Shown: positions 1,236 through 61,580, counted from the first letter of the stretch. The stretch is 64,000 bases of DNA from Patescibacteria group bacterium (GCA_040389385.1 JAZKAA010000003.1:39295-103294), one strand, 5' to 3'. Numbers and translations are program-made. Notes: a model not told the origin generated them from the sequence alone.

Positions 1236-2099
1236 ATGGCCGCTTTCCCCATGCGACAGCTTAAAACCAGCGAGTGGCCGGTGCTCTTAAAAGAGATACC
1301 TGACAAGCCCTCTACTTTATATATCCGCGGCACCATGCCGCCTAAAGACTACGCGCTCTTGTGCGTTGTCGGCAGCCGCGCGTGCTCGCCGTATGCGCGC
1401 CGCATGACCCAAAAAATAATCGCGGGGCTCGCACAATACCCGGTAGCTATAGTCTCCGGCATGGCGCTCGGCCTGGATAGCGAGGCGCACAAAGCCGCGC
1501 TTGATGTCGGCCTGCCCACCATAGCGGTGCTGCCATCATCGGCCGACGAGGAGAGTATCTACCCCTCGACCAACCGGCCGCTTGCTCAGCGTATACTTGC
1601 GCGCGGGAGCGCACTCATAAGCGAGTCGGGCAAACCGCACAAGGCCGCTATATATGACTTCCCCAAGCGCAACCGCATTAGCGCAGGCATGTGCACGGCG
1701 ACACTTATAGTAGAGGCGGGCGAAAAGTCGGGCACGCTTATCACCGCGCGCCTGGCACTCGACTACAACCGCGAGGTGCTTGCTATCCCCCACGAAATCG
1801 GCCGCGAGACAGGCGCCGGCGTCAACCGCTTGATACGCGAGGGTGCAACCTTGGTGCGTGACGCAAGCGACGTGCTGCAGGCGCTCGGGCTAAAAGAGAC
1901 CGAGCCTACGCAGCAAGCGCTGCCGACTGACCTCTCCGAGACAGAAGCGCGGGTACTCCACACTCTCACCGAAGCGCTCGTGCGCGACGAACTTATTGAG
2001 CTTGCCGAGCTTAGCGCGCAAGATGCCGGTGTCGCATTGTCGTCGCTATTAATCCGCGGATTGATAACCGAACGGCTTGGCAAAATTGAAAGGGTGTAG
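1236..2099 (+). CDS. dprA: DNA processing protein DprA/Smf
   Basis: 287 aa; LCVVGSRACSPYA...VSGMALGLDSEAHKAAL Rossmann-like DprA core. Confidence 0.85.
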   Translation: MAAFPMRQLKTSEWPVLLKEIPDKPSTLYIRGTMPPKDYALLCVVGSRACSPYARRMTQKIIAGLAQYPVAIVSGMALGLDSEAHKAALDVGLPTIAVLPSSADEESIYPSTNRPLAQRILARGSALISESGKPHKAAIYDFPKRNRISAGMCTATLIVEAGEKSGTLITARLALDYNREVLAIPHEIGRETGAGVNRLIREGATLVRDASDVLQALGLKETEPTQQALPTDLSETEARVLHTLTEALVRDELIELAELSAQDAGVALSSLLIRGLITERLGKIERV

Positions 2100-2117: not shown

Positions 2118-4346
2118 ATGAAATTGGTAATTGTAGAAAGTCCTGCGAAAGCAAAGACCATAGAAAAATATTTGTCGGAGATAGACTCCGGCGGCGACTT
2201 CCGCGTACGCGCCAGCGTCGGCCATGTGCGCGACCTGCCCAAAAACAACAAAAAGGCTATCGACATTGAGGGCGGCTTTGTCCCTCACTACGAGGTGGTG
2301 GCCGGCAAGGCCGAGGTTATAGCCGACCTCAAAGCCTTGGCCAAAAAGGCCGATGAGGTAATACTCGCGACCGACCCCGACCGCGAGGGCGAGGCTATTG
2401 CCTGGCACATCCAACAGGAGCTCAAGCTCAAAAAGCCCGACCGCATCGTATTTCACGAAATCACAAAAGACGCGATAGCCGAGGCGCTTGCACACCCGCG
2501 CGCGATAGACGAGCACCTGCGCGCGGCGCAAGAGGCACGCCGCGTCTTGGACCGCCTGGTGGGGTACGATCTCTCAGGCCTGATTTGGAAAAAGGTCCGC
2601 TATGGATTGTCTGCAGGTCGCGTGCAGTCGCCGGCGCTGCGCATACTCATGGAGCGCGAGCGCGAGATACGCGCCTTTGTGCCGGAAACTTTTTTTGTAA
2701 TAACCGCACAAACAGAGACGCCCAAAAAGGCCACGCTGGCTCTAACCTGTGTTGAGGAGCCTAAGAAGAAGGGCGAGGCCGAACATATAGTAGAGGCGGT
2801 CAAAAAAGACGGTCTCACAATTGCCGACGTCGGCGAGGCAGAGGCCAAGCGCGCTGCGCGCCCACCGCTCACAACCTCGACCTTGCAGCAGGCTGCCAGC
2901 TCGCGCCTGGGCTACTCGCCCGCTAACACCATGCGCATTGCGCAAAAGTTGTACGAGCAGGGACACATAACCTACATGCGCACAGACTCGGTCAACTTGG
3001 GTGCGCCGGCGCGCGCCGCAATACTGGCTGCGGTAGAAAAAAAGTTTGGCAAAGAGTATGCCGAGTCGCGCACCTATACCGCCAAGTCTAAAAACGCGCA
3101 GGAGGCGCACGAGGCTATCCGCCCCACCAATGTGGCCAAAGAGTCGGCCGGCACCACGCCGGAGCAAAAAAAGCTGTACGAGCTTATCTGGCGCCGCGCG
3201 GTTGCGTCACAAATGGCCGATGCCAAGGTACTCAAGACAAAAATTGTCGCCAAGACCAAAGACGCCAAAGTGCCGGAGTTTGTGGCCACCGGCTCGCGCG
3301 TACTCTTCCCGGGTTGGCTGGCGTGCGACACCGCCGCGCGCGGCGAGGATGTCGAGCTACCCAAAGTTGCTGTAGGAGAGGCGCTCAAAGTTAATAGTGT
3401 TGATATTGAGGAAAAGCAGACCACGCCGCCGCCGCGCTACACCGAGGCTGGGCTGGTTAAGGAGCTAGAAAAGCGAGGCATCGGCCGCCCCAGCACCTAC
3501 GCGTCAATAATGAAGACGCTCGCCGACCGCGGCTATGTCGAGAAGGAGGGTCGCAGCCTCAAGCCCACTGACACGGGCGACGTGGTATCGAGCTTTTTAG
3601 AAGCGAACTTCCCCACCTACATATCCGACACGTTTACCGCCGAGATGGAGGATGAGTTGGACGACATCGCCACCGGCAAGCGCGAGTATGCAAAAACGCT
3701 CAAAGACTTTTATGGTCCGTTTCTTAAAGAGGTAAAGATAAAAGACAAAGAGGCCGGCAAGATTACCGACCTGGGGCCCACTCCGGCCGAGTTTACGTGC
3801 CCGCTCTGTAGCAGCACGATGGTGTACAAACTCTCGCGCCAGGGCAAGTTTATGTCGTGCAGCAAGTTCCCCGACTGCATTGGCGCACGCACAGAGTTGG
3901 GCGAAATCTTGAGCAACGAGCCCGCCAAACCAATCGGCAAGCACCCGGAGACCGGCGAGGATATTTATGTACTGGACGGCCGCTTTGGGCCGTATGTGCA
4001 GTTGGGCGAGATGCCGACCGGTAAAGGCAAAACTAAAAAGGCCAAGCCGCGCCGCTCGAGCTTGCCCAAAGACAAAAAGCCGGAAGACGTAACACTGGCC
4101 GACGCTTTGATTTATCTCTCGCTCCCACGCGAGCTTGGTGTGCACCCGGTAACTGGAGAGAAAATAATCGCCAACGTGGGGCGCTTTGGCCCGTACATTG
4201 CACATAACACCAAACCCAAACCCGACTTCCGCTCCCTAAAAACCGACAGCCCGTACGACATCACCTTTGAGCGTGCGTTGGAGATATTGAAAGAAGAAAA
4301 GAAACGTAGAGGCTTTGCACGCAAAACAAAAACCACCGACAAGTAG
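2118..4346 (+). CDS. topA: DNA topoisomerase I
   Basis: 742 aa; N-terminal Toprim (MKLVIVESPAKAKTIEKYL), catalytic-Tyr region (YMRTDS), C-terminal Zn-ribbon (CPLCSS...CSKFPDC). Confidence 0.92.
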   Translation: MKLVIVESPAKAKTIEKYLSEIDSGGDFRVRASVGHVRDLPKNNKKAIDIEGGFVPHYEVVAGKAEVIADLKALAKKADEVILATDPDREGEAIAWHIQQELKLKKPDRIVFHEITKDAIAEALAHPRAIDEHLRAAQEARRVLDRLVGYDLSGLIWKKVRYGLSAGRVQSPALRILMEREREIRAFVPETFFVITAQTETPKKATLALTCVEEPKKKGEAEHIVEAVKKDGLTIADVGEAEAKRAARPPLTTSTLQQAASSRLGYSPANTMRIAQKLYEQGHITYMRTDSVNLGAPARAAILAAVEKKFGKEYAESRTYTAKSKNAQEAHEAIRPTNVAKESAGTTPEQKKLYELIWRRAVASQMADAKVLKTKIVAKTKDAKVPEFVATGSRVLFPGWLACDTAARGEDVELPKVAVGEALKVNSVDIEEKQTTPPPRYTEAGLVKELEKRGIGRPSTYASIMKTLADRGYVEKEGRSLKPTDTGDVVSSFLEANFPTYISDTFTAEMEDELDDIATGKREYAKTLKDFYGPFLKEVKIKDKEAGKITDLGPTPAEFTCPLCSSTMVYKLSRQGKFMSCSKFPDCIGARTELGEILSNEPAKPIGKHPETGEDIYVLDGRFGPYVQLGEMPTGKGKTKKAKPRRSSLPKDKKPEDVTLADALIYLSLPRELGVHPVTGEKIIANVGRFGPYIAHNTKPKPDFRSLKTDSPYDITFERALEILKEEKKRRGFARKTKTTDK

Positions 4347-4710: not shown

Positions 4711-6210
4711 ATGCCTCTATCCGGCGCACAGGAGATTACGGCGCTTATGCGCTCGCCCAGCTCGGCTGATAAGGAGCTGGTGGAAAAGGCCTACGCCTTT
4801 GCGATGGTCGCGCACAAGGACCATAAGCGCTACAGCGGCGAGCCATACATCGGCCACCTGGTAGAGACTGCCAAAGGCTTGGCCGGGCTCGGGCTGTCGG
4901 CCAAAACAGTCGCGGCCGGTTTATTGCACGACAGTATCGAGGACGCGGGCATTTTACCCGAGACATTGGAAAAGGAGTTCGGCAAAGAGATACGATTTTT
5001 GGTGGAGGGCGTAACCAAGCTCGGACACGTTAAGTACCACGGAGCGGAGCGCCATCGCGAGAGCATGCGCAAGCTGCTGGTGGCAACCGGCAAAGATGCG
5101 CGGGTTTTGATAATCAAGCTGATGGACCGCCTGCACAATATGCGCACGCTTGTGCATGTGCCCGAGGCCAAGCGTGCGCGCATTGCGCTGGAGACACTAG
5201 AAATATACGCAGCCATTGCCCACCGCTTGGGTATGGGGCTCGTCCGCCGCGAGTTGGAGGACCTTGCGTTTGAGTATGCTTTGCCGGCAGAGTTTAAAGA
5301 AACAAAAACGCTCCTCAACACTCAAAGCCGCACGACGCTCGAGCGTCTGGAAAAGATGGTCAAAACGCTGCGCAAAGAGTTTGGAAAAAATGGCATCACC
5401 AAGTTTCGCACCGACGCGCGGGTTAAGGGCCTGTACAGCTTGTACCGCAAACTGCAGCGCAAAGAGGGCGATATAGAAAAGATTTATGACATCGCGGCGC
5501 TGCGCATTATTGTGCCAAGCGTCACCGACTGCTACCGCGTCTTAGGATTGGTCAACAATATTTGGCAGCCGCTGCCGGGCAAGATTAAAGACTACATTGC
5601 CTTCCCCAAGCCCAACGGGTATCAATCGCTCCACACCACCGTCTTTACCGGCGACGGCGGCATTGTCGAGGTACAAATACGCACCGAGGAAATGCACGCC
5701 GAGGCCGAGCTTGGTATCGCCGCGCACGTCGGCTACAAAGAGGGCGCGCCCAAGTCGGGCAGCTTTGACTGGATAAAAAGTCTGGTGCCCGGCTTTAAGA
5801 GGGAGAAGGCCGCCGAGGACGCCGCGCACAAGCGCTACAGCGCGATAGGTGCGCCCGACTGGCTAGCCGACATAGGCGACGACGCACAAGAGCCCGATAT
5901 CGAGACGGCGCTTAAGACCGACCTCTTTAGCCGCCGGGTGTTTGTCTTTACCCCCACGGGCGATGTCGTCGACCTCCCCGCCGACTCGTCCCCTATCGAC
6001 TTTGCGTACGCGATACACTCCGACATCGGCGACCACGCGTTTGGTGCCAAGGTCAACGGCAAGATGGTCCACCTGGACACACATCTCCACAACGGCGACA
6101 TTGTCGAGATACAAACGCGAAAGACTGCCCACCCCTCAAAAAAATGGCTCGACTTTACCAAAACCACCATGGCGCGTCGCCACATCCGCAACGCGCTCGA
6201 GAAGCAGTAG
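4711..6210 (+). CDS. rel: bifunctional (p)ppGpp synthetase/hydrolase Rel/SpoT homolog (short form: HD + synthetase + TGS, no ACT)
   Basis: 499 aa; HD motif (HDSIED), RelA/SpoT synthetase region (RIIVPSVTDCYRVLG...), TGS-like C-terminus (GKMVHLDTHLHNGDIVEI). Confidence 0.88.
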   Translation: MPLSGAQEITALMRSPSSADKELVEKAYAFAMVAHKDHKRYSGEPYIGHLVETAKGLAGLGLSAKTVAAGLLHDSIEDAGILPETLEKEFGKEIRFLVEGVTKLGHVKYHGAERHRESMRKLLVATGKDARVLIIKLMDRLHNMRTLVHVPEAKRARIALETLEIYAAIAHRLGMGLVRRELEDLAFEYALPAEFKETKTLLNTQSRTTLERLEKMVKTLRKEFGKNGITKFRTDARVKGLYSLYRKLQRKEGDIEKIYDIAALRIIVPSVTDCYRVLGLVNNIWQPLPGKIKDYIAFPKPNGYQSLHTTVFTGDGGIVEVQIRTEEMHAEAELGIAAHVGYKEGAPKSGSFDWIKSLVPGFKREKAAEDAAHKRYSAIGAPDWLADIGDDAQEPDIETALKTDLFSRRVFVFTPTGDVVDLPADSSPIDFAYAIHSDIGDHAFGAKVNGKMVHLDTHLHNGDIVEIQTRKTAHPSKKWLDFTKTTMARRHIRNALEKQ

Positions 6211-21983: not shown

Positions 21984-22085
21984 GGATAAAGTAAGGGCTC
22001 TGGCCACGTGGCGAAGAAGCAACGCGGCGGTCTGCAAAACCGCTATGCGAGGGTGCGAATCCCTCCGTGGCCTCACGTTTAAAAT

Positions 22086-25982: not shown

Positions 25983-26014
25983 ATCTTTGGTCTCAACAAA
26001 CAATACGGCGCGCT

Positions 26015-26097
26015 ACGAAAGTAGCGCGCCGCTTTATTTCCCGACGCTCTGGTCGGGACCCCGACCGCTTTCGCGCGTCGGGGTTTATTTTTTTAAT
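26015..26097. terminator. triple-hairpin bidirectional terminator region; its last two hairpins (26040-26097) form a repeat shared with 58726-58770
   Basis: GGCGCGCTAC-gaaa-GTAGCGCGCC, then CCCGAC-gctctg-GTCGGG, then CCCCGAC-cgctttcgcgc-GTCGGGG followed by TTTATTTTTTT. Confidence 0.6.
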
Positions 26098-57053: not shown

Positions 57054-57715
57054 GTATCCTTGGTGGCGTACTGCCCGCGCTGGTGTGGTTGGCCTTTTGG
57101 CTCTTAGAGGATAGGTGCCAGCCCGAGCCCAAGCGGTTTATCTTTTTGTGCTTTGTCGCCGGCATGCTCGCCGTGTGGCCCGCGCTGCTTTTAGAAAAGG
57201 CTCTGGTCCCCTACGCATCGGGCACTACACTCCTACTTGGCTGGGCCAGTATCGAGGAGCTGCTTAAATTTGGTGCGGCAATGATAATGGCACTTATGTG
57301 GGCCAGCTATGACGAACCCTTAGACGCAGTGGTGTACATGGTTACGGCGGCGCTCGGCTTTAGTGCGATGGAGAACGTGCTCTTTTTGCTCACACCTATA
57401 GGCCACGGCGACCTCCTGCGCAGCGTCGTTACGGGCGACCTGCGGTTTATTGGCGCGACCCTACTGCATACGCTTACATCTGCGACTATCGGTATTATGC
57501 TGGCGCTGTCTTTTGTGCGGCCGGCGGTGGAGCGGCGTGTGGCCGCATTGGGCGGACTTATCCTCGCTATTTTCTTGCACACGGTGTTTAACTTTTTTAT
57601 ACTTAAGGGGGGTGGAAGTTCGACCTTTTGGGTCTTCCTCCTGATTTGGTGCGGTATAATAGGAGTGCTGCTGATTACCGAGCACCTCAAGCAGCCGACA
57701 AAGGACTACTGTTAA
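57029..57715 (+). CDS. prsW: PrsW-family intramembrane metalloprotease (start may be downstream of the listed 57029)
   Basis: Motifs IEELLKFG (EExxK), FSAMENVLF (FxxxEN), LLHTLTSA (HxxxS/T); polytopic. Confidence 0.65.
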   Translation: MAGGPLFLSILGGVLPALVWLAFWLLEDRCQPEPKRFIFLCFVAGMLAVWPALLLEKALVPYASGTTLLLGWASIEELLKFGAAMIMALMWASYDEPLDAVVYMVTAALGFSAMENVLFLLTPIGHGDLLRSVVTGDLRFIGATLLHTLTSATIGIMLALSFVRPAVERRVAALGGLILAIFLHTVFNFFILKGGGSSTFWVFLLIWCGIIGVLLITEHLKQPTKDYC

Positions 57716-57748
57716 CCATGAAAAGTCTGCTTTTCACAAATTAATAAG

Positions 57749-58261
57749 ATGGCACGTAAAAAAAGCTTATTTGAGTGGCTGACCGGCTCCGCCGAGGATG
57801 ACTACTCTTTTGACGACCTCGAGCAAGGCGGAGCCGCTTTCCCTGTGCGCAGCCCTGCAGGTAAAACCAAACATGTGCCCATTTCTATAGAAGACGATCC
57901 GACCAAACCTGCCTTGACAGAGGAGGAAGAGGCCGGCGAGCTCGCGGTAGACGTCTACCAGACCCCCACCCACATCATCATCAAGGCGATGATAGCGGGC
58001 GTTAAGCCCGAGGACTTGGACGTATCTATCACCCGCGACATGGTTACTGTCCGCGGCAAGCGCGAGCGCCACACAGAGTCATCGGGCGGCGACTTTTTCT
58101 TCCAGGAGCTGTACTGGGGCGCGTTTACCCGCACAGTTGTCTTGCCTCAAGAGGTTGAGATAGAAGAGGCCGAGGCCAGCGAAAAGCACGGGCTCCTTAC
58201 TATCCGTCTCCCCAAGCTCGACAAAGGCCGCCAGGCAAAATTGAAAGTTAAGTCTAACTAG
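57749..58261 (+). CDS. Hsp20/alpha-crystallin family small heat-shock protein
   Basis: 170 aa; alpha-crystallin domain LAVDVYQTPTHIIIKAMIAGVKPEDLDVSI...GLLTIRLPK. Confidence 0.85.
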   Translation: MARKKSLFEWLTGSAEDDYSFDDLEQGGAAFPVRSPAGKTKHVPISIEDDPTKPALTEEEEAGELAVDVYQTPTHIIIKAMIAGVKPEDLDVSITRDMVTVRGKRERHTESSGGDFFFQELYWGAFTRTVVLPQEVEIEEAEASEKHGLLTIRLPKLDKGRQAKLKVKSN

Positions 58262-58278
58262 GCTACAATCGTGCGTAC

Positions 58279-58351
58279 GCTTGGGTAGCTCAGTTGGTAG
58301 AGCGCTTCCCTGAAGAGGAAGATGTCGCCGGTTCGAGCCCGGCCCCAAGCA
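58279..58351 (+). tRNA. tRNA-Phe (anticodon GAA), no encoded CCA
   Basis: GCTTGGGTAGCTCAGTTGGTAGAGC, anticodon arm CTTCC-CTGAAGA-GGAAG, T-arm GCCGG-TTCGAGC-CCGGC. Confidence 0.85.
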
Positions 58352-58360
58352 CATAGGTAA

Positions 58361-58639
58361 TTACTGCGTTTGATGCCCAAACTGAGCAAAAAAGTTTTGC
58401 ACCTGCAGCTGGAAGTCGTGCGCGTTGCTGTATGCATGCAAAAACTGGTCGACATACGGCTGTATATAGTAGTAGTACGCCGCGCCCGATGCGCCAAGCA
58501 CCAGTAACCACCACGCAATCCTAAACAGCATGTGCCAGCGCTGGCTGCGGCGCATGCCGCGTATCATGTGGTTGGTTTCCTCTATCACCTTGCCCTGCCG
58601 CGCCACGAGCGCCTTCAACTCATCTATCTCCGGATCCAT
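58361..58639 (-). CDS. hypothetical small membrane protein (92 aa)
   Basis: Charged N-terminus, one TM (WWLLVLGASGAAYYYYI); ORF only. Confidence 0.4.
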   Translation of the reverse strand: MDPEIDELKALVARQGKVIEETNHMIRGMRRSQRWHMLFRIAWWLLVLGASGAAYYYYIQPYVDQFLHAYSNAHDFQLQVQNFFAQFGHQTQ

Positions 58640-58664
58640 ATCGCTATAGTATACAAGCTATTTT

Positions 58665-58716
58665 TGGTGTCTCCGGCCGGAATCGAACCGACATCCTCTC
58701 CTTAGGACGGAGTAGC
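58665..58716 (-). other. partial tRNA-like element: diverged copy (~85% identity) of the anticodon-arm-to-CCA portion of the adjacent tRNA-Arg candidate, lacking a matching 5' acceptor strand
   Basis: Revcomp CTACTCCGTCCTAAGGAGAGGATGTCGGTTCGATTCCGGCCGGAGACACCA, canonical T-arm and CCA; the required 5' strand GTCTCCG is absent upstream. Confidence 0.45.
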
Positions 58717-58725
58717 TCTATGCAA

Positions 58726-58770
58726 GCCGACGCCTTGGTCGGCTCCCCGACCGCCTTGCGCGTCGGGGTT
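58726..58770. repeat. double-hairpin repeat (GCCGAC-gccttg-GTCGGC, CCCCGAC-cgccttgcgc-GTCGGGG), second genomic copy of the element at 26040-26097
   Basis: About 85% identical over ~45 nt to the 26.0-kb copy; lies between the partial and the full tRNA-Arg-like sequences. Confidence 0.55.
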
Positions 58771-58781
58771 GAGCACTACAC

Positions 58782-58856
58782 TGGTGTCCCCGGCAGGAAT
58801 TGCACCCACATCTACTCCTTAGGACGGAGCTGTTCTATCTATTGAACTACGGGGAC
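58782..58856 (-). tRNA. candidate tRNA-Arg (anticodon CCT) with non-canonical T-loop, CCA encoded
   Basis: Revcomp GTCCCCG TA GTTC-AATAGATA-GAAC A GCTCC-GTCCTAA-GGAGT AGAT GTGGG-TGCAATT-CCTGC CGGGGAC A CCA; acceptor pairs perfectly, T-stem needs two GU pairs, T-loop lacks TPsiC. Confidence 0.5.
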
Positions 58857-58861
58857 GTTAC

Positions 58862-58893
58862 GAACAAACCGGCCTTGCGGCCGGGGTTTCTTT
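58862..58893 (-). terminator. terminator hairpin CCGGCC-ttgc-GGCCGG + T-run downstream of the glutaredoxin-like gene
   Basis: Read directly (AAACCGGCCTTGCGGCCGGGGTTTCTTT, bidirectional-capable). Confidence 0.5.
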
Positions 58894-58907
58894 CTATGTG
58901 CAAAGAA

Positions 58908-59147
58908 TTAGGCCGCGATACCGAGTTTGCCCGCTACCCTCTCCCTGTCAAACCCGACCATCACCGAGTCGCCCACCACTATAACCGGCACGCCAAGCTG
59001 GCCCGTCATCTGTATCATCTCCTCGCGCTTAGCCGCGTCGGTGGAGACATCGTAGGCGGTAAATTGGACGTTTTTCTCCGCAAAGAAGTCCTTGGCAAGC
59101 TTGCAGAAGTGGCACGTGGGTGTGGTGTATATGGTTACGTTTTGCAT
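58908..59147 (-). CDS. glutaredoxin-like protein (NrdH/Grx family; start adjusted to MQNVTIY)
   Basis: 79 aa; TIYTTPTCHFCKLAKDFF (CxxC), GQLGVPVIVVGD (cis-Pro region). Confidence 0.75.
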   Translation of the reverse strand: MQNVTIYTTPTCHFCKLAKDFFAEKNVQFTAYDVSTDAAKREEMIQMTGQLGVPVIVVGDSVMVGFDRERVAGKLGIAA

Positions 59148-59172
59148 AAACCTATTATACCAAATATTGGAT

Positions 59173-59246
59173 TGGTGCGGAATGGGAGAATCGAACTCCC
59201 GTCCTATGCTTGGGAAGCACATGTTTTGCCACTAAACTAATTCCGC
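59173..59246 (-). tRNA. tRNA-Gly (anticodon CCC), CCA encoded
   Basis: Revcomp GCGGAATTAGTTTAGTGGCAAAAC A TGTGC-TTCCCAA-GCATA ... GGGAG-TTCGATT-CTCCC ATTCCGCACCA. Confidence 0.8.
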
Positions 59247-59269
59247 AGTATGGTCTCGGCGCTAACAAC

Positions 59270-59662
59270 TTACCACACAAAGAGGGCGTGCCATAGCTTG
59301 CCCCACCAGCCCTGGTCGGAGGCGTCGCCTGAAGTGCTGCTGGCCGCCTGATGCACGACCGTTATCTGACCCTCACCGGGGCGGGCGACTCCATAGCGCT
59401 CGCGCAGCGCTCCCTCTACGCCGCGCGGGGTGCCCAATTCGGTCGCCTCTGTCTCTACCTCGGCGTGGCGCGCCTGGAGCTCGGCAAGGTTCTGCTCGGC
59501 AGCGGCCGATGCAGCCGAGGCTGCGGCAAACTTTTGGTACATACCCCACGCCCCATGGACGGCAAAGTAGGCCAACACCCCCACCCCCACAACCCCCGCG
59601 GTCGAGATAGTCGCGCGTAAGACCTCGGAGCGGATATTGCGGCGCTTTCTAAAATCCTGCAT
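59270..59662 (-). CDS. FtsB/DivIC-like septum-formation-initiator family membrane protein, tentative
   Basis: N-terminal TM, coiled coil (AEQNLAELQARHAEVETEATEL), then RERYGVARPGEGQITVV resembling the FtsB C-motif. Confidence 0.45.
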   Translation of the reverse strand: MQDFRKRRNIRSEVLRATISTAGVVGVGVLAYFAVHGAWGMYQKFAAASAASAAAEQNLAELQARHAEVETEATELGTPRGVEGALRERYGVARPGEGQITVVHQAASSTSGDASDQGWWGKLWHALFVW

Positions 59663-59783
59663 CTTTGTTATTGTACTACCGTATGTTTGGCAAAAACAGA
59701 GACCGCAATGTCCGCATTGGCAGCATCATCATAGGGGGCGTCGTTATACTCTCGATGGTGCTCTACACCTTTGCGCTGACTTT

Positions 59784-61580
59784 CTAATCGCTTTTCACCA
59801 TTTTTAAAAACACATCCTCGGGGATATTGACTCTCCCGCGCTCTTTCATCTTGGCTTTGCCCTTCTTTTGCTTTTCGCGCAACTTCATCTTGCGGGTGAT
59901 ATCGCCGCCGTACATATGCTGGGTAACATCTTTGGACATTGCCGAGAGCGTGCGTGAGGCAAGAATGCGCCCGAGCGCGACCCCTTGTATCTTGGTTGCA
60001 AACATTTGTCTGGGCAAAATTTTGTACAACTTTTCTACCGCGGCCACCGCCTCCTCGTTGGCGCGGCGGCTCGAGACCACACGGGTAAACGCCGGCACCG
60101 ACTCCTCGGCGACAAGCAGGTCAAGCCGTGTTACATCCGCCTCGCGCAGCTCGCGCATCTCGTAGGAAATGCTCGCGTAACCGGCCGAGGCGCTCTTAAC
60201 CTTGTCAAAAAAGCCGCGCATCAGCTCGCGCAGCGGCATCACCACCTTGAGCATCATCCTGCCCTCTGAAAACAAATCAGTCGACTCCAACACAGCCTCG
60301 TGGTCGTACAAAAGGGTGCTCAAGGGGCCCACGTACTCGGCCGGCGCGATAATTTCGGCCTCGACAAACGGCTCCCAGACCTTGGCGACCAATCCGTGGT
60401 CGGGGAATAGCGGCGGCGAGTACACCGTAAGCCGCTTGCCTTGTTTGGTCTCTACCTCGTAGGTGATAGTTGGTGTCGTGACAATGAGTGAGAGATTGAA
60501 CTCACGGCGCAGGCGCTCGGTGACTATCTCCATGTGGAGCATGCCGAGCATCCCACACCGGAAGCCGCGGCCCAAGAGCCCTGACGACTCCTCCTCAAAC
60601 GATAGCGACGAGTCGGAGAGTTTAAGACGCGTGAGCGCTTGGCGCAGCGTAACAAAGTCGTCCTGACTTTCGGGATACACAGACGCCCACACCACCGGCT
60701 TGGGCTCGCCATAGCCGGCGAGCATTGGGGTTTTACTCCCCTTTTGGCGTATCGTGTCCCCCACGCGTGCAAACCCCGCCTCTTTAATGCCCGTTACAAC
60801 ATATCCCGTCGAGCCTGCACTAAGCGTACCGGTGGGCTTGGGCTGAGGCGAAAATACGCCGACCTCGAGCGCATTAAATTGCCGCCCGCTCGCAACAAAC
60901 TCAAGCGCGTCGCCTTTCTTGAGCGTACCCTCAAACATACGCAGGTACACAATGATGCCCTGATGGTCCGAGTATTGAAAGTCAAAGATAAGCGCGCGCG
61001 GCTCTTTGCCCCCCACTTCCTTGGGCGGCGGAACGCGCTCGATAATAGCCTTGAGCACGTCCTCGACGCCCTCGCCGGTGCGTCCCGAGCAGGACAAGAT
61101 CTCGCTCTCCGGAATCTCAAGAAGTTTGGCCACCTGGACTTTAGTATTTTCTACATCTGCCAGCGGCGAGTCTATTTTAGAAATCACGGGCACAATCACC
61201 AGCCCCAACTCGCGCGCCATGCGCAGCGTGGTTAATGTTTGTGCCTGCACGCCTTGGGTCGAGTCCACCAGCAGTATGGAGCCCTCTACCGCGGTGAGCG
61301 CGCGCGACACCTCGTAGCTAAAGTCGATATGCCCCGGCGTGTCGATGAGGTTGAGCTCGTAGCCATCGTACTCCATGCGCACGGGCTGCATCTTAATGGT
61401 GATGCCGCGCTCGCGCTCGAGGTCCATGCTATCGAGTACCTGGTCGCGCATCTTGCGGACCTCGACAGTCTTGGTCACCTCCAAAAAGCGGTCAGCCAAA
61501 GTGGACTTGCCGTGGTCAATATGGGCAATTATTGAAAAATTTCTGATTCCTTTCATATTAAGCATCCTCCCAAGCACCAT
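59784..61580 (-). CDS. lepA: elongation factor 4 (LepA)
   Basis: 598 aa; G-domain IRNFSIIAHIDHGKSTLADR, DTPGHIDF; LepA-specific C-terminal domain. Confidence 0.95.
   Translation of the reverse strand: MVLGRMLNMKGIRNFSIIAHIDHGKSTLADRFLEVTKTVEVRKMRDQVLDSMDLERERGITIKMQPVRMEYDGYELNLIDTPGHIDFSYEVSRALTAVEGSILLVDSTQGVQAQTLTTLRMARELGLVIVPVISKIDSPLADVENTKVQVAKLLEIPESEILSCSGRTGEGVEDVLKAIIERVPPPKEVGGKEPRALIFDFQYSDHQGIIVYLRMFEGTLKKGDALEFVASGRQFNALEVGVFSPQPKPTGTLSAGSTGYVVTGIKEAGFARVGDTIRQKGSKTPMLAGYGEPKPVVWASVYPESQDDFVTLRQALTRLKLSDSSLSFEEESSGLLGRGFRCGMLGMLHMEIVTERLRREFNLSLIVTTPTITYEVETKQGKRLTVYSPPLFPDHGLVAKVWEPFVEAEIIAPAEYVGPLSTLLYDHEAVLESTDLFSEGRMMLKVVMPLRELMRGFFDKVKSASAGYASISYEMRELREADVTRLDLLVAEESVPAFTRVVSSRRANEEAVAAVEKLYKILPRQMFATKIQGVALGRILASRTLSAMSKDVTQHMYGGDITRKMKLREKQKKGKAKMKERGRVNIPEDVFLKMVKSD

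Follow-up and report, generated by a model that had tools for sequence, protein, structure and literature searches.

Introduction

Repetitive extragenic palindromic (REP) sequences, bacterial interspersed mosaic elements (BIMEs) and repeats resembling miniature inverted-repeat transposable elements (MITEs) are short, GC-rich, imperfect palindromes that occur in pairs outside genes, often near terminators. In the biology of REPs and of REP-associated tyrosine transposases (RAYTs), the tetranucleotide GTAG flanks the repeats. Homology-facilitated illegitimate recombination occurs in natural transformation of Acinetobacter and Streptococcus. In organelle genomes, tandem duplication and random loss leaves an intact tRNA gene beside a decaying isoacceptor copy, and tRNA genes move and flip while the protein genes stay fixed. 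Fragments of tRNA genes that derive from integration are common in prokaryotes (PMC9897764); at such attachment (att) sites, a partial copy of the 3' portion lies on the same strand downstream of a complete gene, is non-functional and can mislead annotation (PMC9897764). Here we describe a locus in a 64-kb stretch of a soil Patescibacteria genome (GCA_040389385.1, JAZKAA010000003.1; hereinafter referred to as the window), in which a complete tRNA-Arg(CCU) gene is followed by a 3' partial copy of a second tRNA-Arg(CCU) allele, with a pair of hairpins between them.

The locus resembles each of these systems in part. It has the same-strand arrangement of att fragments but carries no integrase or element body, its two alleles differ over their whole length, and the fragment represents the allele carried by the closest relatives. 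The hairpin pair has the REP/BIME- and MITE-like characters listed above, together with compensated stems and, in a related genome, a position inside pre-existing sequence directly 3' of GTAG; it differs from REP/BIME systems in its two copies in 64 kb, in the presence of GTAG at only one of three copies, and in a target duplication at one copy only (TTTATTT, of low complexity). As in homology-facilitated illegitimate recombination, homology on one side (the end of a neighbouring membrane protein gene, ORF92, or of a glutaredoxin gene) and a non-homologous junction on the other would give a mosaic with a partial duplication, although that model does not require a hairpin pair at the junction. 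In contrast to the organelle case, the locus is bacterial and holds two alleles ~82% identical with compensated pairs rather than a fresh duplicate; duplication and random loss alone does not give the same allele in both orientations, as is seen in this clade.

With a probability of roughly 0.6, we interpret the region as the scar of a recombinational replacement of a tRNA gene, with a REP-like insertion element at the junction. Coordinates are those of the whole window, and L-numbers (L004 to L095) denote related loci or contigs fetched for comparison.

Results

The partial copy is a truncated second allele

The complete gene was called by ARAGORN and scored 56.8 bits against Rfam RF00005 (gathering threshold 29), with a seven-nucleotide anticodon loop carrying CCU and an encoded CCA, in agreement with a first-pass annotation that had been made from the sequence alone. 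Downstream on the same strand, after a spacer of 60 nucleotides (nt; 58722-58781), lies a second copy of 57 nt that corresponds to tRNA positions 19-73 plus CCA, has the canonical T-loop TTCGATT, and aligns to the complete gene without gaps at ~47 of 57 positions (~82%). The first-pass annotation had recognized this copy and its T-loop, but its values of ~52 nt, 85% identity and a 65-nt spacer needed correction. On the minus strand the order is the complete tRNA-Arg, 13 nt (GTGTAGTGCTCAA), CCCCGAC-gcgcaaggcg-GTCGGGG, GCCGAC-caaggc-GTCGGC, TTGC and the partial tRNA.

The partial copy was called by neither ARAGORN nor Rfam, no acceptor stem and D arm being found there, and no complete canonical tRNA was present at the partial locus in the ARAGORN check of the region. 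The absence of a complementary 5' acceptor strand, as originally described, was borne out by a search across the window, which returned only the complete gene's own 5' end, with three mismatches. A split or permuted gene was also considered and rejected, the search for a missing 5' half having yielded only that same 5' end.

Positions 19-72 of the partial copy were identical (54/54) to the intact tRNA-Arg(CCU) of L004 and L009, two short metagenome contigs that are the closest relatives found. Each of them has one tRNA-Arg(CCU), located between the glutaredoxin terminator and ORF92, with a G18-G19 D-loop and a UUCGAUU T-loop. The perfect match identifies the partial copy as a truncated second allele (G18:U55) and not as a decayed duplicate of its neighbour, and because it is unable to form an acceptor stem, it is a pseudogene. 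The complete and partial copies share the anticodon stem-loop core CTCCGTCCTAAGGAG, in which all 15 nt are identical. An exact scan with the 3' half of the canonical allele (TCCTAAGGAGNNGATGTCGGTTCGATTCCGGCC) gave no match in GTDB representatives, which do not include the source metagenome-assembled genome (MAG) and its close kin, and none in IMG/VR. Regarding a possible origin of this allele from another arginine isoacceptor, its D arm equals the D arm of a Berkelbacteria tRNA-Arg(UCU), and the remainder was unmatched.

The spacer GTGTAGTGCTCAA can be read as tRNA positions ~7-15 (GTAG..CTCAA), and about 1% of composition-preserving shuffles align equally well. This alignment is no more than suggestive of a decayed 5' stub; were it one, the old gene would be nearly whole, with the hairpin pair inserted in its D-loop.

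The complete gene belongs to a coherent A18:G55 type

The complete gene has the D-loop AAUAGAUA and the T-loop UGCAAUU in place of the canonical U54-U55-C56 and G18-G19. On account of the T-loop it had been regarded as the odd copy, a view that did not survive comparison with related genomes. A scan for tRNA-Arg(CCU) with the T-arm pattern GGTGCRAWTCC found 6 loci in JGI metagenomes and 74 in GTDB representative genomes, mostly MAGs labelled Kaiser-, Adler-, Nomura-, Taylor-, Davies-, Berkel-, Peri- or Saccharibacteria, and D-loop position 18 was A, not G, in every real match. Over the distinct tRNAs of the fetched loci, the T-loop/D-loop combination was TG/AG in 61, TT/GG in 101 and mixed in 2; A18 was present in 61 of 63 G55 tRNAs and in no U55 tRNA. 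Since G55 covaries with A18, the combination represents a coherent variant of the G18-Psi55 elbow contact and not decay. To judge from these sequences, A18:G55 is the standard tRNA-Arg(CCU) at this locus in Kaiser-, Adler-, Nomura- and Taylorbacteria-like genomes, and the canonical-looking G18:U55 allele is the unusual one for the clade.

The complete gene differs from the L004/L009 allele at 13 positions scattered over the full molecule. Pairing is kept at 4:69 (U-A in L004/L009, C-G in the complete gene), 11:24 (C-G, U-A) and 51:63 (C-G, G-U), a pair is restored at 27:43 (A.A, G.U), and the tertiary 18:55 contact is also changed. The 5' part departs from the relatives' allele at positions 4, 11, 18, 24, 26 and 27, in each case matching its own 3' part. 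As the differences in the 5' and 3' parts are in step and compensated, the complete gene cannot be described as a native 5' part joined to a foreign 3' part. Except for one compensated pair (29:41), it is the tRNA-Arg of L025, L038, L045 and L048. Moreover, the block from the glutaredoxin terminator to the complete tRNA is nearly identical in the window, L038 and L048, including a terminator hairpin (ACCGGCCGCAAGGCCGGTTTGTTC) that is common to these three and diverged by compensated changes in L004 and L009. The complete gene appears to occupy the ancestral slot, immediately behind the glutaredoxin terminator, and is presumably the functional copy.

No match to the G55 allele pattern was found in IMG/VR, and there is accordingly no sign of a phage origin. 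A full-text literature search on A18/G55 retrieved no relevant paper. In a survey of L015-L094, the G55 type was also observed in some tRNA-Arg(UCU/UCG) and tRNA-Leu genes of L020 and in a tRNA-Phe remnant of L068. The tRNA-Cys gene of the window (22002-22074) has a G55-type T-loop (GGGTGCGAATCCC) and a D-loop without GG.

The locus is syntenic and its flanks are mosaic

Using tblastn with the neighbouring proteins of the window, the gene order LepA, DivIC, tRNA-Gly, glutaredoxin (Grx), tRNA-Arg, ORF92, tRNA-Phe, small heat shock protein (sHSP), membrane protein and valyl-tRNA synthetase (ValRS) was identified in ~20 loci, in which the slot between Grx and ORF92 always holds an A18:G55 tRNA-Arg. 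Amino-acid identity between L004 and the window was 96% for the LepA C-terminus, 97.5% for Grx and 78% for DivIC. The sHSP of L009 was identical to that of the window over 45 amino acids, and its flanks showed ~94-95% nucleotide identity.

The window and L009 are diverged upstream of the tRNA. They are ~94% identical from the partial tRNA, across the 25-nt spacer, to the end of the conserved block CATGATACGCGGCATGCGCCGC ~92 nt into ORF92; beyond this block identity falls steeply, and it is similarly high again in tRNA-Phe and sHSP. ORF92 itself is mosaic (window 58361-58639 compared with L009 157-477 and L004 1348-1668): the protein of L004 and L009 has 106 amino acids with a longer C-terminus, and the 3' half of the window's gene is unrelated to theirs and resembles that of more distant relatives. 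These alignments describe the locus as a mosaic of tracts with separate histories, with the partial tRNA at a tract boundary.

A hairpin pair stands at the junction

On the plus strand, the pair at 58.7 kb consists of (A)GCCGAC-gccttg-GTCGGC(T) at 58726-58743 and CCCCGAC-cgccttgcgc-GTCGGGG at 58745-58768. The first-pass annotation had reported that this double hairpin recurs with a T tract at 26 kb and had proposed a small mobile or terminator-type repeat family. The recurrence was confirmed, the motif CCCGAC..GTCGGG occurring three times in the window where 0.05 occurrences are expected. In ~650 kb (the window plus ~590 kb of related loci), 11 pairs of adjacent hairpins with shared arms were found, and the CCGAC/GTCGG core was present in only three of these pairs, at 58.7 kb, at 26 kb and in L030. 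Folded as single-stranded DNA, the two pairs of the window gave -18.3 and -17.9 kcal/mol (z = -3.9 and -4.4). Across the three copies, stems of 6-8 bp are kept by compensated changes, the loops are similar, and the folding energies as DNA are -16 to -18 kcal/mol; the outer pairs A-GCCGAC/GTCGGC-T and T-CCCGAC/GTCGGG-A, and likewise CCCCGAC and GGCCGAC, are examples of such compensation.

The third and most informative copy lies beyond the window in L030 (Minisyncoccia; LepA 75% identical; region 4827-4968). Here, 11 nt past its 5' end, an intact tRNA-Gly(CCC) is accompanied by a repeat of its initial 19 nt, which is split between G10 and T11 by the hairpin pair tCCCGAC-gctttcg-GTCGGG-a-GGCCGAC-taagc-GTCGGCC (4920-4958). 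The interruption (GCCACTAAA/CTACACTCGC) is clean, without target-site duplication, and the pair stands between divergently oriented genes. The tetranucleotide GTAG abuts the L030 pair, lies 7 nt away from the pair at 58.7 kb and does not occur at 26 kb. Neither a RAYT nor an IS200-type transposase was identified, although no search aimed at transposases was made. A hairpin-junction pattern gave four matches in IMG/VR, all of them single high-GC terminator hairpins, which were unrelated and were set aside.

The pairs could alternatively be mere terminators, alike by convergence or by common descent, with no insertion element involved. The copy at 26 kb invites this explanation: on the plus strand it is followed directly by the T tract, which corresponds to the form of an intrinsic terminator, and convergent genes stand on either side of it; the copy at 58.7 kb likewise follows a tRNA gene. 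However, the 58.7-kb pair has no T tract on either strand and was not flagged by the terminator scan, and the 26-kb pair lies between the stop codon of a minus-strand gene for a small membrane protein, the first of an array of such pilin-like open reading frames (ORFs), and an existing strong bidirectional terminator (26005-26032, 12 bp) 7 nt away. The L030 pair, being in a divergent-promoter position, cannot act as a terminator, and it splits the 19-nt tRNA-Gly repeat. Further, the copies resemble each other in loops as well as stems, and no relative was seen with a hairpin pair downstream of the orthologous tRNA-Arg. We therefore regard terminators as an unlikely explanation of the pairs, while it retains more weight than any of the alternatives discussed below for the locus as a whole.

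The repeat-family proposal, on the other hand, gained from the insertion-like position in L030. REP/BIME- or MITE-like is a fair working label for the hairpin pair, and it probably entered the junction as an insertion. At 26 kb, a TTTATTT direct repeat is present on both sides, but it falls within the T tract and is of low complexity. An empty site for this pair was sought through homologues of the adjacent 187-aa protein, and only the protein itself matched.

Features of the locus

The positions of the features are given in Table 1. ARAGORN called 13 tRNA genes over the whole window. When 57.5-60 kb was searched permissively against Rfam, nothing beyond three tRNAs was returned, and Intron_gpI had no match in 57500-60000 even at E<=10, so that a tRNA interrupted by a group I intron was not found there.

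Table 1. Features around the tRNA-Arg(CCU) genes and the second hairpin pair, in window coordinates
Feature	Position	Strand	Basis and remarks
Complete tRNA-Arg(CCU)	58782-58856	-	ARAGORN and Rfam; A18:G55 type, CCA encoded
Spacer GTGTAGTGCTCAA, 13 nt, directly 3' of CCA	58769-58781	-	Local alignment against the 5' 18 nt of either allele
Hairpin pair, 43 nt, at the break of the old tRNA gene	58726-58768	no strand	Motif, pair and fold scans
Partial tRNA-Arg(CCU), second allele, 57 nt	58665-58721	-	Match to the L004/L009 gene
Terminator hairpin of the glutaredoxin gene, CCGGCCGCAAGGCCGG and TTTGTTC, 12 nt upstream of the complete tRNA	58869-58884	-	
ORF92, gene of a small membrane protein, 25 nt past the 3' end of the partial tRNA	58361-58639	-	
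Glutaredoxin-like gene (Grx), upstream of the complete tRNA	58908-59147	-	97.5% amino-acid identity to L004
Second hairpin pair	26039-26083	no strand	Motif and pair scans

tRNA inversion and allele remnants in related genomes

The Gly, Arg and Phe tRNA genes were each found in either orientation across the syntenic loci, whereas the protein genes were fixed in order and strand. The comparison covered the three genes of the window (58279-58352, 58782-58856 and 59173-59246) and L004, L009, L016, L025, L030, L031, L038, L045, L048, L049, L051, L053, L056, L060 and L090. The same tRNA-Gly allele occurred in both orientations, one way round in the window and the other in L004 and L038, and likewise oppositely oriented in L025 and L031 compared with L048.

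Remnants of other alleles were frequent next to intact genes in related genomes. In L045 (1544-1740), the old tRNA-Gly lies in 5' and 3' pieces around a new complete tRNA-Gly; the new gene is flanked by inverted repeats of 8 bp, and a hairpin stands at the break. In L068 (5051-5206), 32 nt beyond a complete tRNA-Phe there is the 3' remnant of a different allele, whose T-loop TGCAAAT is of the G55 type. L081 contained several pieces of tRNA-Gly and a 21-bp palindrome derived from the old T arm, with CAAGC duplicated at the junction. In addition, L081 (~1320-1610, minus strand) and L016 (1275-1460, plus strand) each have an intact tRNA-Gly(CCC) between homologous inverted repeats of 13-15 bp (CCCGTTAGAA[G/A]TC). 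This cassette interrupts a second tRNA gene in its anticodon loop; the outer halves of that gene have matching acceptor strands and, in L016, also keep CCA. Flanking repeats of 13-15 bp are not expected by chance in 190 tRNAs; apart from these two outliers, flanking inverted repeats showed no overall excess over shuffles that would make them a general cause of flipping.

A protein gene showed the same arrangement. In L048 (5011-5118), a diverged remnant of the 5' end of lepA (VQHIRNFSIIAHT) is followed by a hairpin pair of the CCCGTTAGAA type and then by the intact lepA start, and a further hairpin with CCCGTTAGAA arms lies inside lepA (5309-5339), one arm falling on the conserved QPVRM codons. 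Hairpin pairs were thus located at least three times at the junction where a gene adjoins the remnant of a different allele (tRNA-Arg in the window, tRNA-Gly in L030 and lepA in L048), and they belong to at least two sequence families.

It is conceivable, although we hold it as a tentative and rather doubtful proposal, that tRNA genes are small replaceable cassettes in this clade and that the region in the window is a snapshot of a recurrent or dedicated hairpin-associated mechanism of replacement and inversion. Candidates would include a REP/RAYT-like process, template switching at structured DNA, uptake or recombination tracts bounded by hairpins, and insertion of a hairpin element followed by rescue. 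A limited literature search on tRNA inversion in Patescibacteria found nothing relevant.

Several other features of the fetched loci were recorded. Group I introns of ~220-260 nt interrupt the anticodon loop of tRNA-Phe in L022 (2616-2906, intron 2634-2872), L077 (3333-3664) and L089 (694-990); that of L022 scored 58.6 bits against Intron_gpI in Rfam, and the intron-bearing tRNA-Phe was missed by ARAGORN. Such intron-interrupted tRNAs are known in Patescibacteria (PMC13011429). The LepA of L016 (2179-4470) has 763 amino acids compared with the usual ~600, with an insertion of ~165 amino acids after the G1 region that may be an intein or an inserted domain. In L057, in a Berkelbacteria tRNA cluster, att-like copies of 18-24 nt from the 3' ends of tRNA-Arg(UCG) and tRNA-Lys(CUU) lie ~100 nt downstream of the genes (2424-2447 and 3173-3191).

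Discussion

Probable replacement of one allele by another

Two tRNA-Arg(CCU) alleles share a single intergenic slot among close relatives, from the glutaredoxin terminator to ORF92. In the genome studied here, the complete A18:G55 allele would be the one that works, and the G18:U55 allele would survive as a pseudogene from position 19 to the 3' end behind the 43-nt hairpin pair. A non-homologous event of recombination or insertion, illegitimate or homology-facilitated, probably joined the two; it would have involved diverged genomes from within one group and no integrase.

The event could have run in either of two directions. In the first, the ancestor would have had the canonical allele, and an incoming block comprising the terminator and the A18:G55 gene would have displaced the 5' end of the resident gene; as a variant, the resident G18:U55 gene might already have been hit by the hairpin element. 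In the second, the A18:G55 gene would be the resident one, and an L009-like tract would have been imported with its left end inside the donor tRNA. Either direction, and likewise an ancestral tandem of the two alleles, makes the fragment a pseudogene remnant of allele replacement. The recurrence in relatives of an intact gene with a remnant of another allele tens of nucleotides away, for tRNA-Gly in L045 and L081, tRNA-Phe in L068 and lepA in L048, lends support to the replacement scar.

Several observations weigh against this interpretation or limit it. Only three close genomes bear on the direction and the number of events. The hairpin pair is present only twice in the 64-kb window and once in the ~590 kb of related loci. 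The junction was seen only in the MAG contig at NCBI; exact-protein look-ups of ORF92 and sHSP, made in search of a second assembly, found no other contig on record. In addition, a look-up of Grx led to an independent assembly, the Logan contig L095 of SRR26324622 (alignment with positions 58810-59300), which matches the window without a difference from LepA until halfway through the complete tRNA-Arg. It stops there at ...CCTAAGGAGTAGATGT, and this end inside the tRNA may reflect a branch of the assembly graph or strain heterogeneity. Further, if the 5' stub is real, it has accumulated ~4 changes in 15 nt against none in the 54 nt of the 3' part, and a decayed stub beside an intact 3' part would require that the latter was recently imported or converted, or that it is under selection.

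Alternative histories of the locus

An old tandem pair, formed by duplication or acquisition and then subject to random loss, is the next candidate. The ancestor would have had both alleles, L004 and L009 would have lost the A18:G55 copy, and the genome studied here would have lost the 5' end of the G18:U55 copy. Both alleles do occur within the tight group formed by the window, L004 and L009, and the anticodon stem of the complete gene (CUCC/GGAG) is that of the G18:U55 allele, the nearest orthologues having CCCC/GGGG; the latter could reflect gene conversion while the two genes were co-resident. Against a tandem, none of 95 loci had both copies complete, the 54 nt of the truncated copy have not decayed at all, and the deletion in L004 and L009 would have to be precise, restoring the distance to the terminator that the A18:G55 gene has elsewhere. 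We consider this history quite improbable.

The first-pass annotation had raised the typical scar of site-specific integration at a tRNA gene. In its classical form, an integrative element would have recombined in the anticodon stem-loop and given the gene its own 3' half in place of the native one, and the body would later have been deleted, leaving 60 nt. The same-strand direct repeat of the 3' portion agrees with this, as does the identical 15-nt core, since crossovers typically fall in the anticodon stem-loop; a conserved anticodon arm would be equally expected to give the same core. What remains of the proposal is that the partial copy is a scar and not a gene. Site-specific integration itself is not supported, on several grounds: neither an integrase nor extra DNA was found, and the locus is collinear with ~20 relatives, which leaves no room for an island or an integrase; the complete gene does not combine a native 5' half with an element-derived 3' half, its differences lying on both sides of the anticodon and being mutually compensated; neither allele occurs in the viral contigs of IMG/VR; and several other remnants in relatives have spacers of only 11-43 nt, in line with the short 60-nt spacer here. 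An att scar is consequently very unlikely.

Still a little less credible is retention of the partial tRNA for a function: it might be a signal for processing or stability, contribute to the ORF92 promoter or leader, or act as a tRNA-like RNA. Its 54 nt are perfectly conserved while the putative 5' stub is degraded, and ORF92 starts 25 nt downstream and directly follows a co-oriented tRNA-Arg in many relatives. In six relatives, however, tRNA-Arg is inverted relative to ORF92, which indicates that ORF92 can be expressed with no tRNA in the same orientation. Inside the partial tRNA no properly spaced promoter-like -35 element was found, and lacking an acceptor stem, it cannot form substrates for RNase P, RNase Z, the CCA enzyme or arginyl-tRNA synthetase. 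The identity is equally high in the spacer and ORF next to it (94%), which a recent recombination tract would be expected to produce.

Least probable of all is an assembly chimera in which two co-existing strains with one allele each were stitched into an artificial tandem: although L095 ends in the complete tRNA just past the core common to both alleles and the look-ups yielded no second contig, the only shared stretch is the 15 nt in the anticodon arm, where the contig does not switch, the assembled junction of hairpin pair, TTGC and ATAGAGC has no shared sequence and hence no shared k-mer for a de Bruijn mis-join, the hairpin pair is present twice in the same contig, and analogous structures occur in unrelated assemblies.

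Implications

The feature belongs to the known class of tRNA pseudogene remnants of allele replacement, with a palindromic element added at the junction; the turnover and flipping of tRNA genes across the clade is the more novel lead. For annotation, the fragment should not be counted as a tRNA nor be read as an att site. Nor should a G55 T-loop be taken to indicate a pseudogene, since in Patescibacteria it is the mark of a coherent variant, A18:G55, of the universal elbow contact G18-Psi55. The locus provides a dated, sequence-level example of an essential small gene that was swapped between diverged relatives, in organisms that are thought to depend on DNA uptake, and the hairpin-pair elements together with the in-place flipping of tRNA genes offer tractable markers of such gene swapping.

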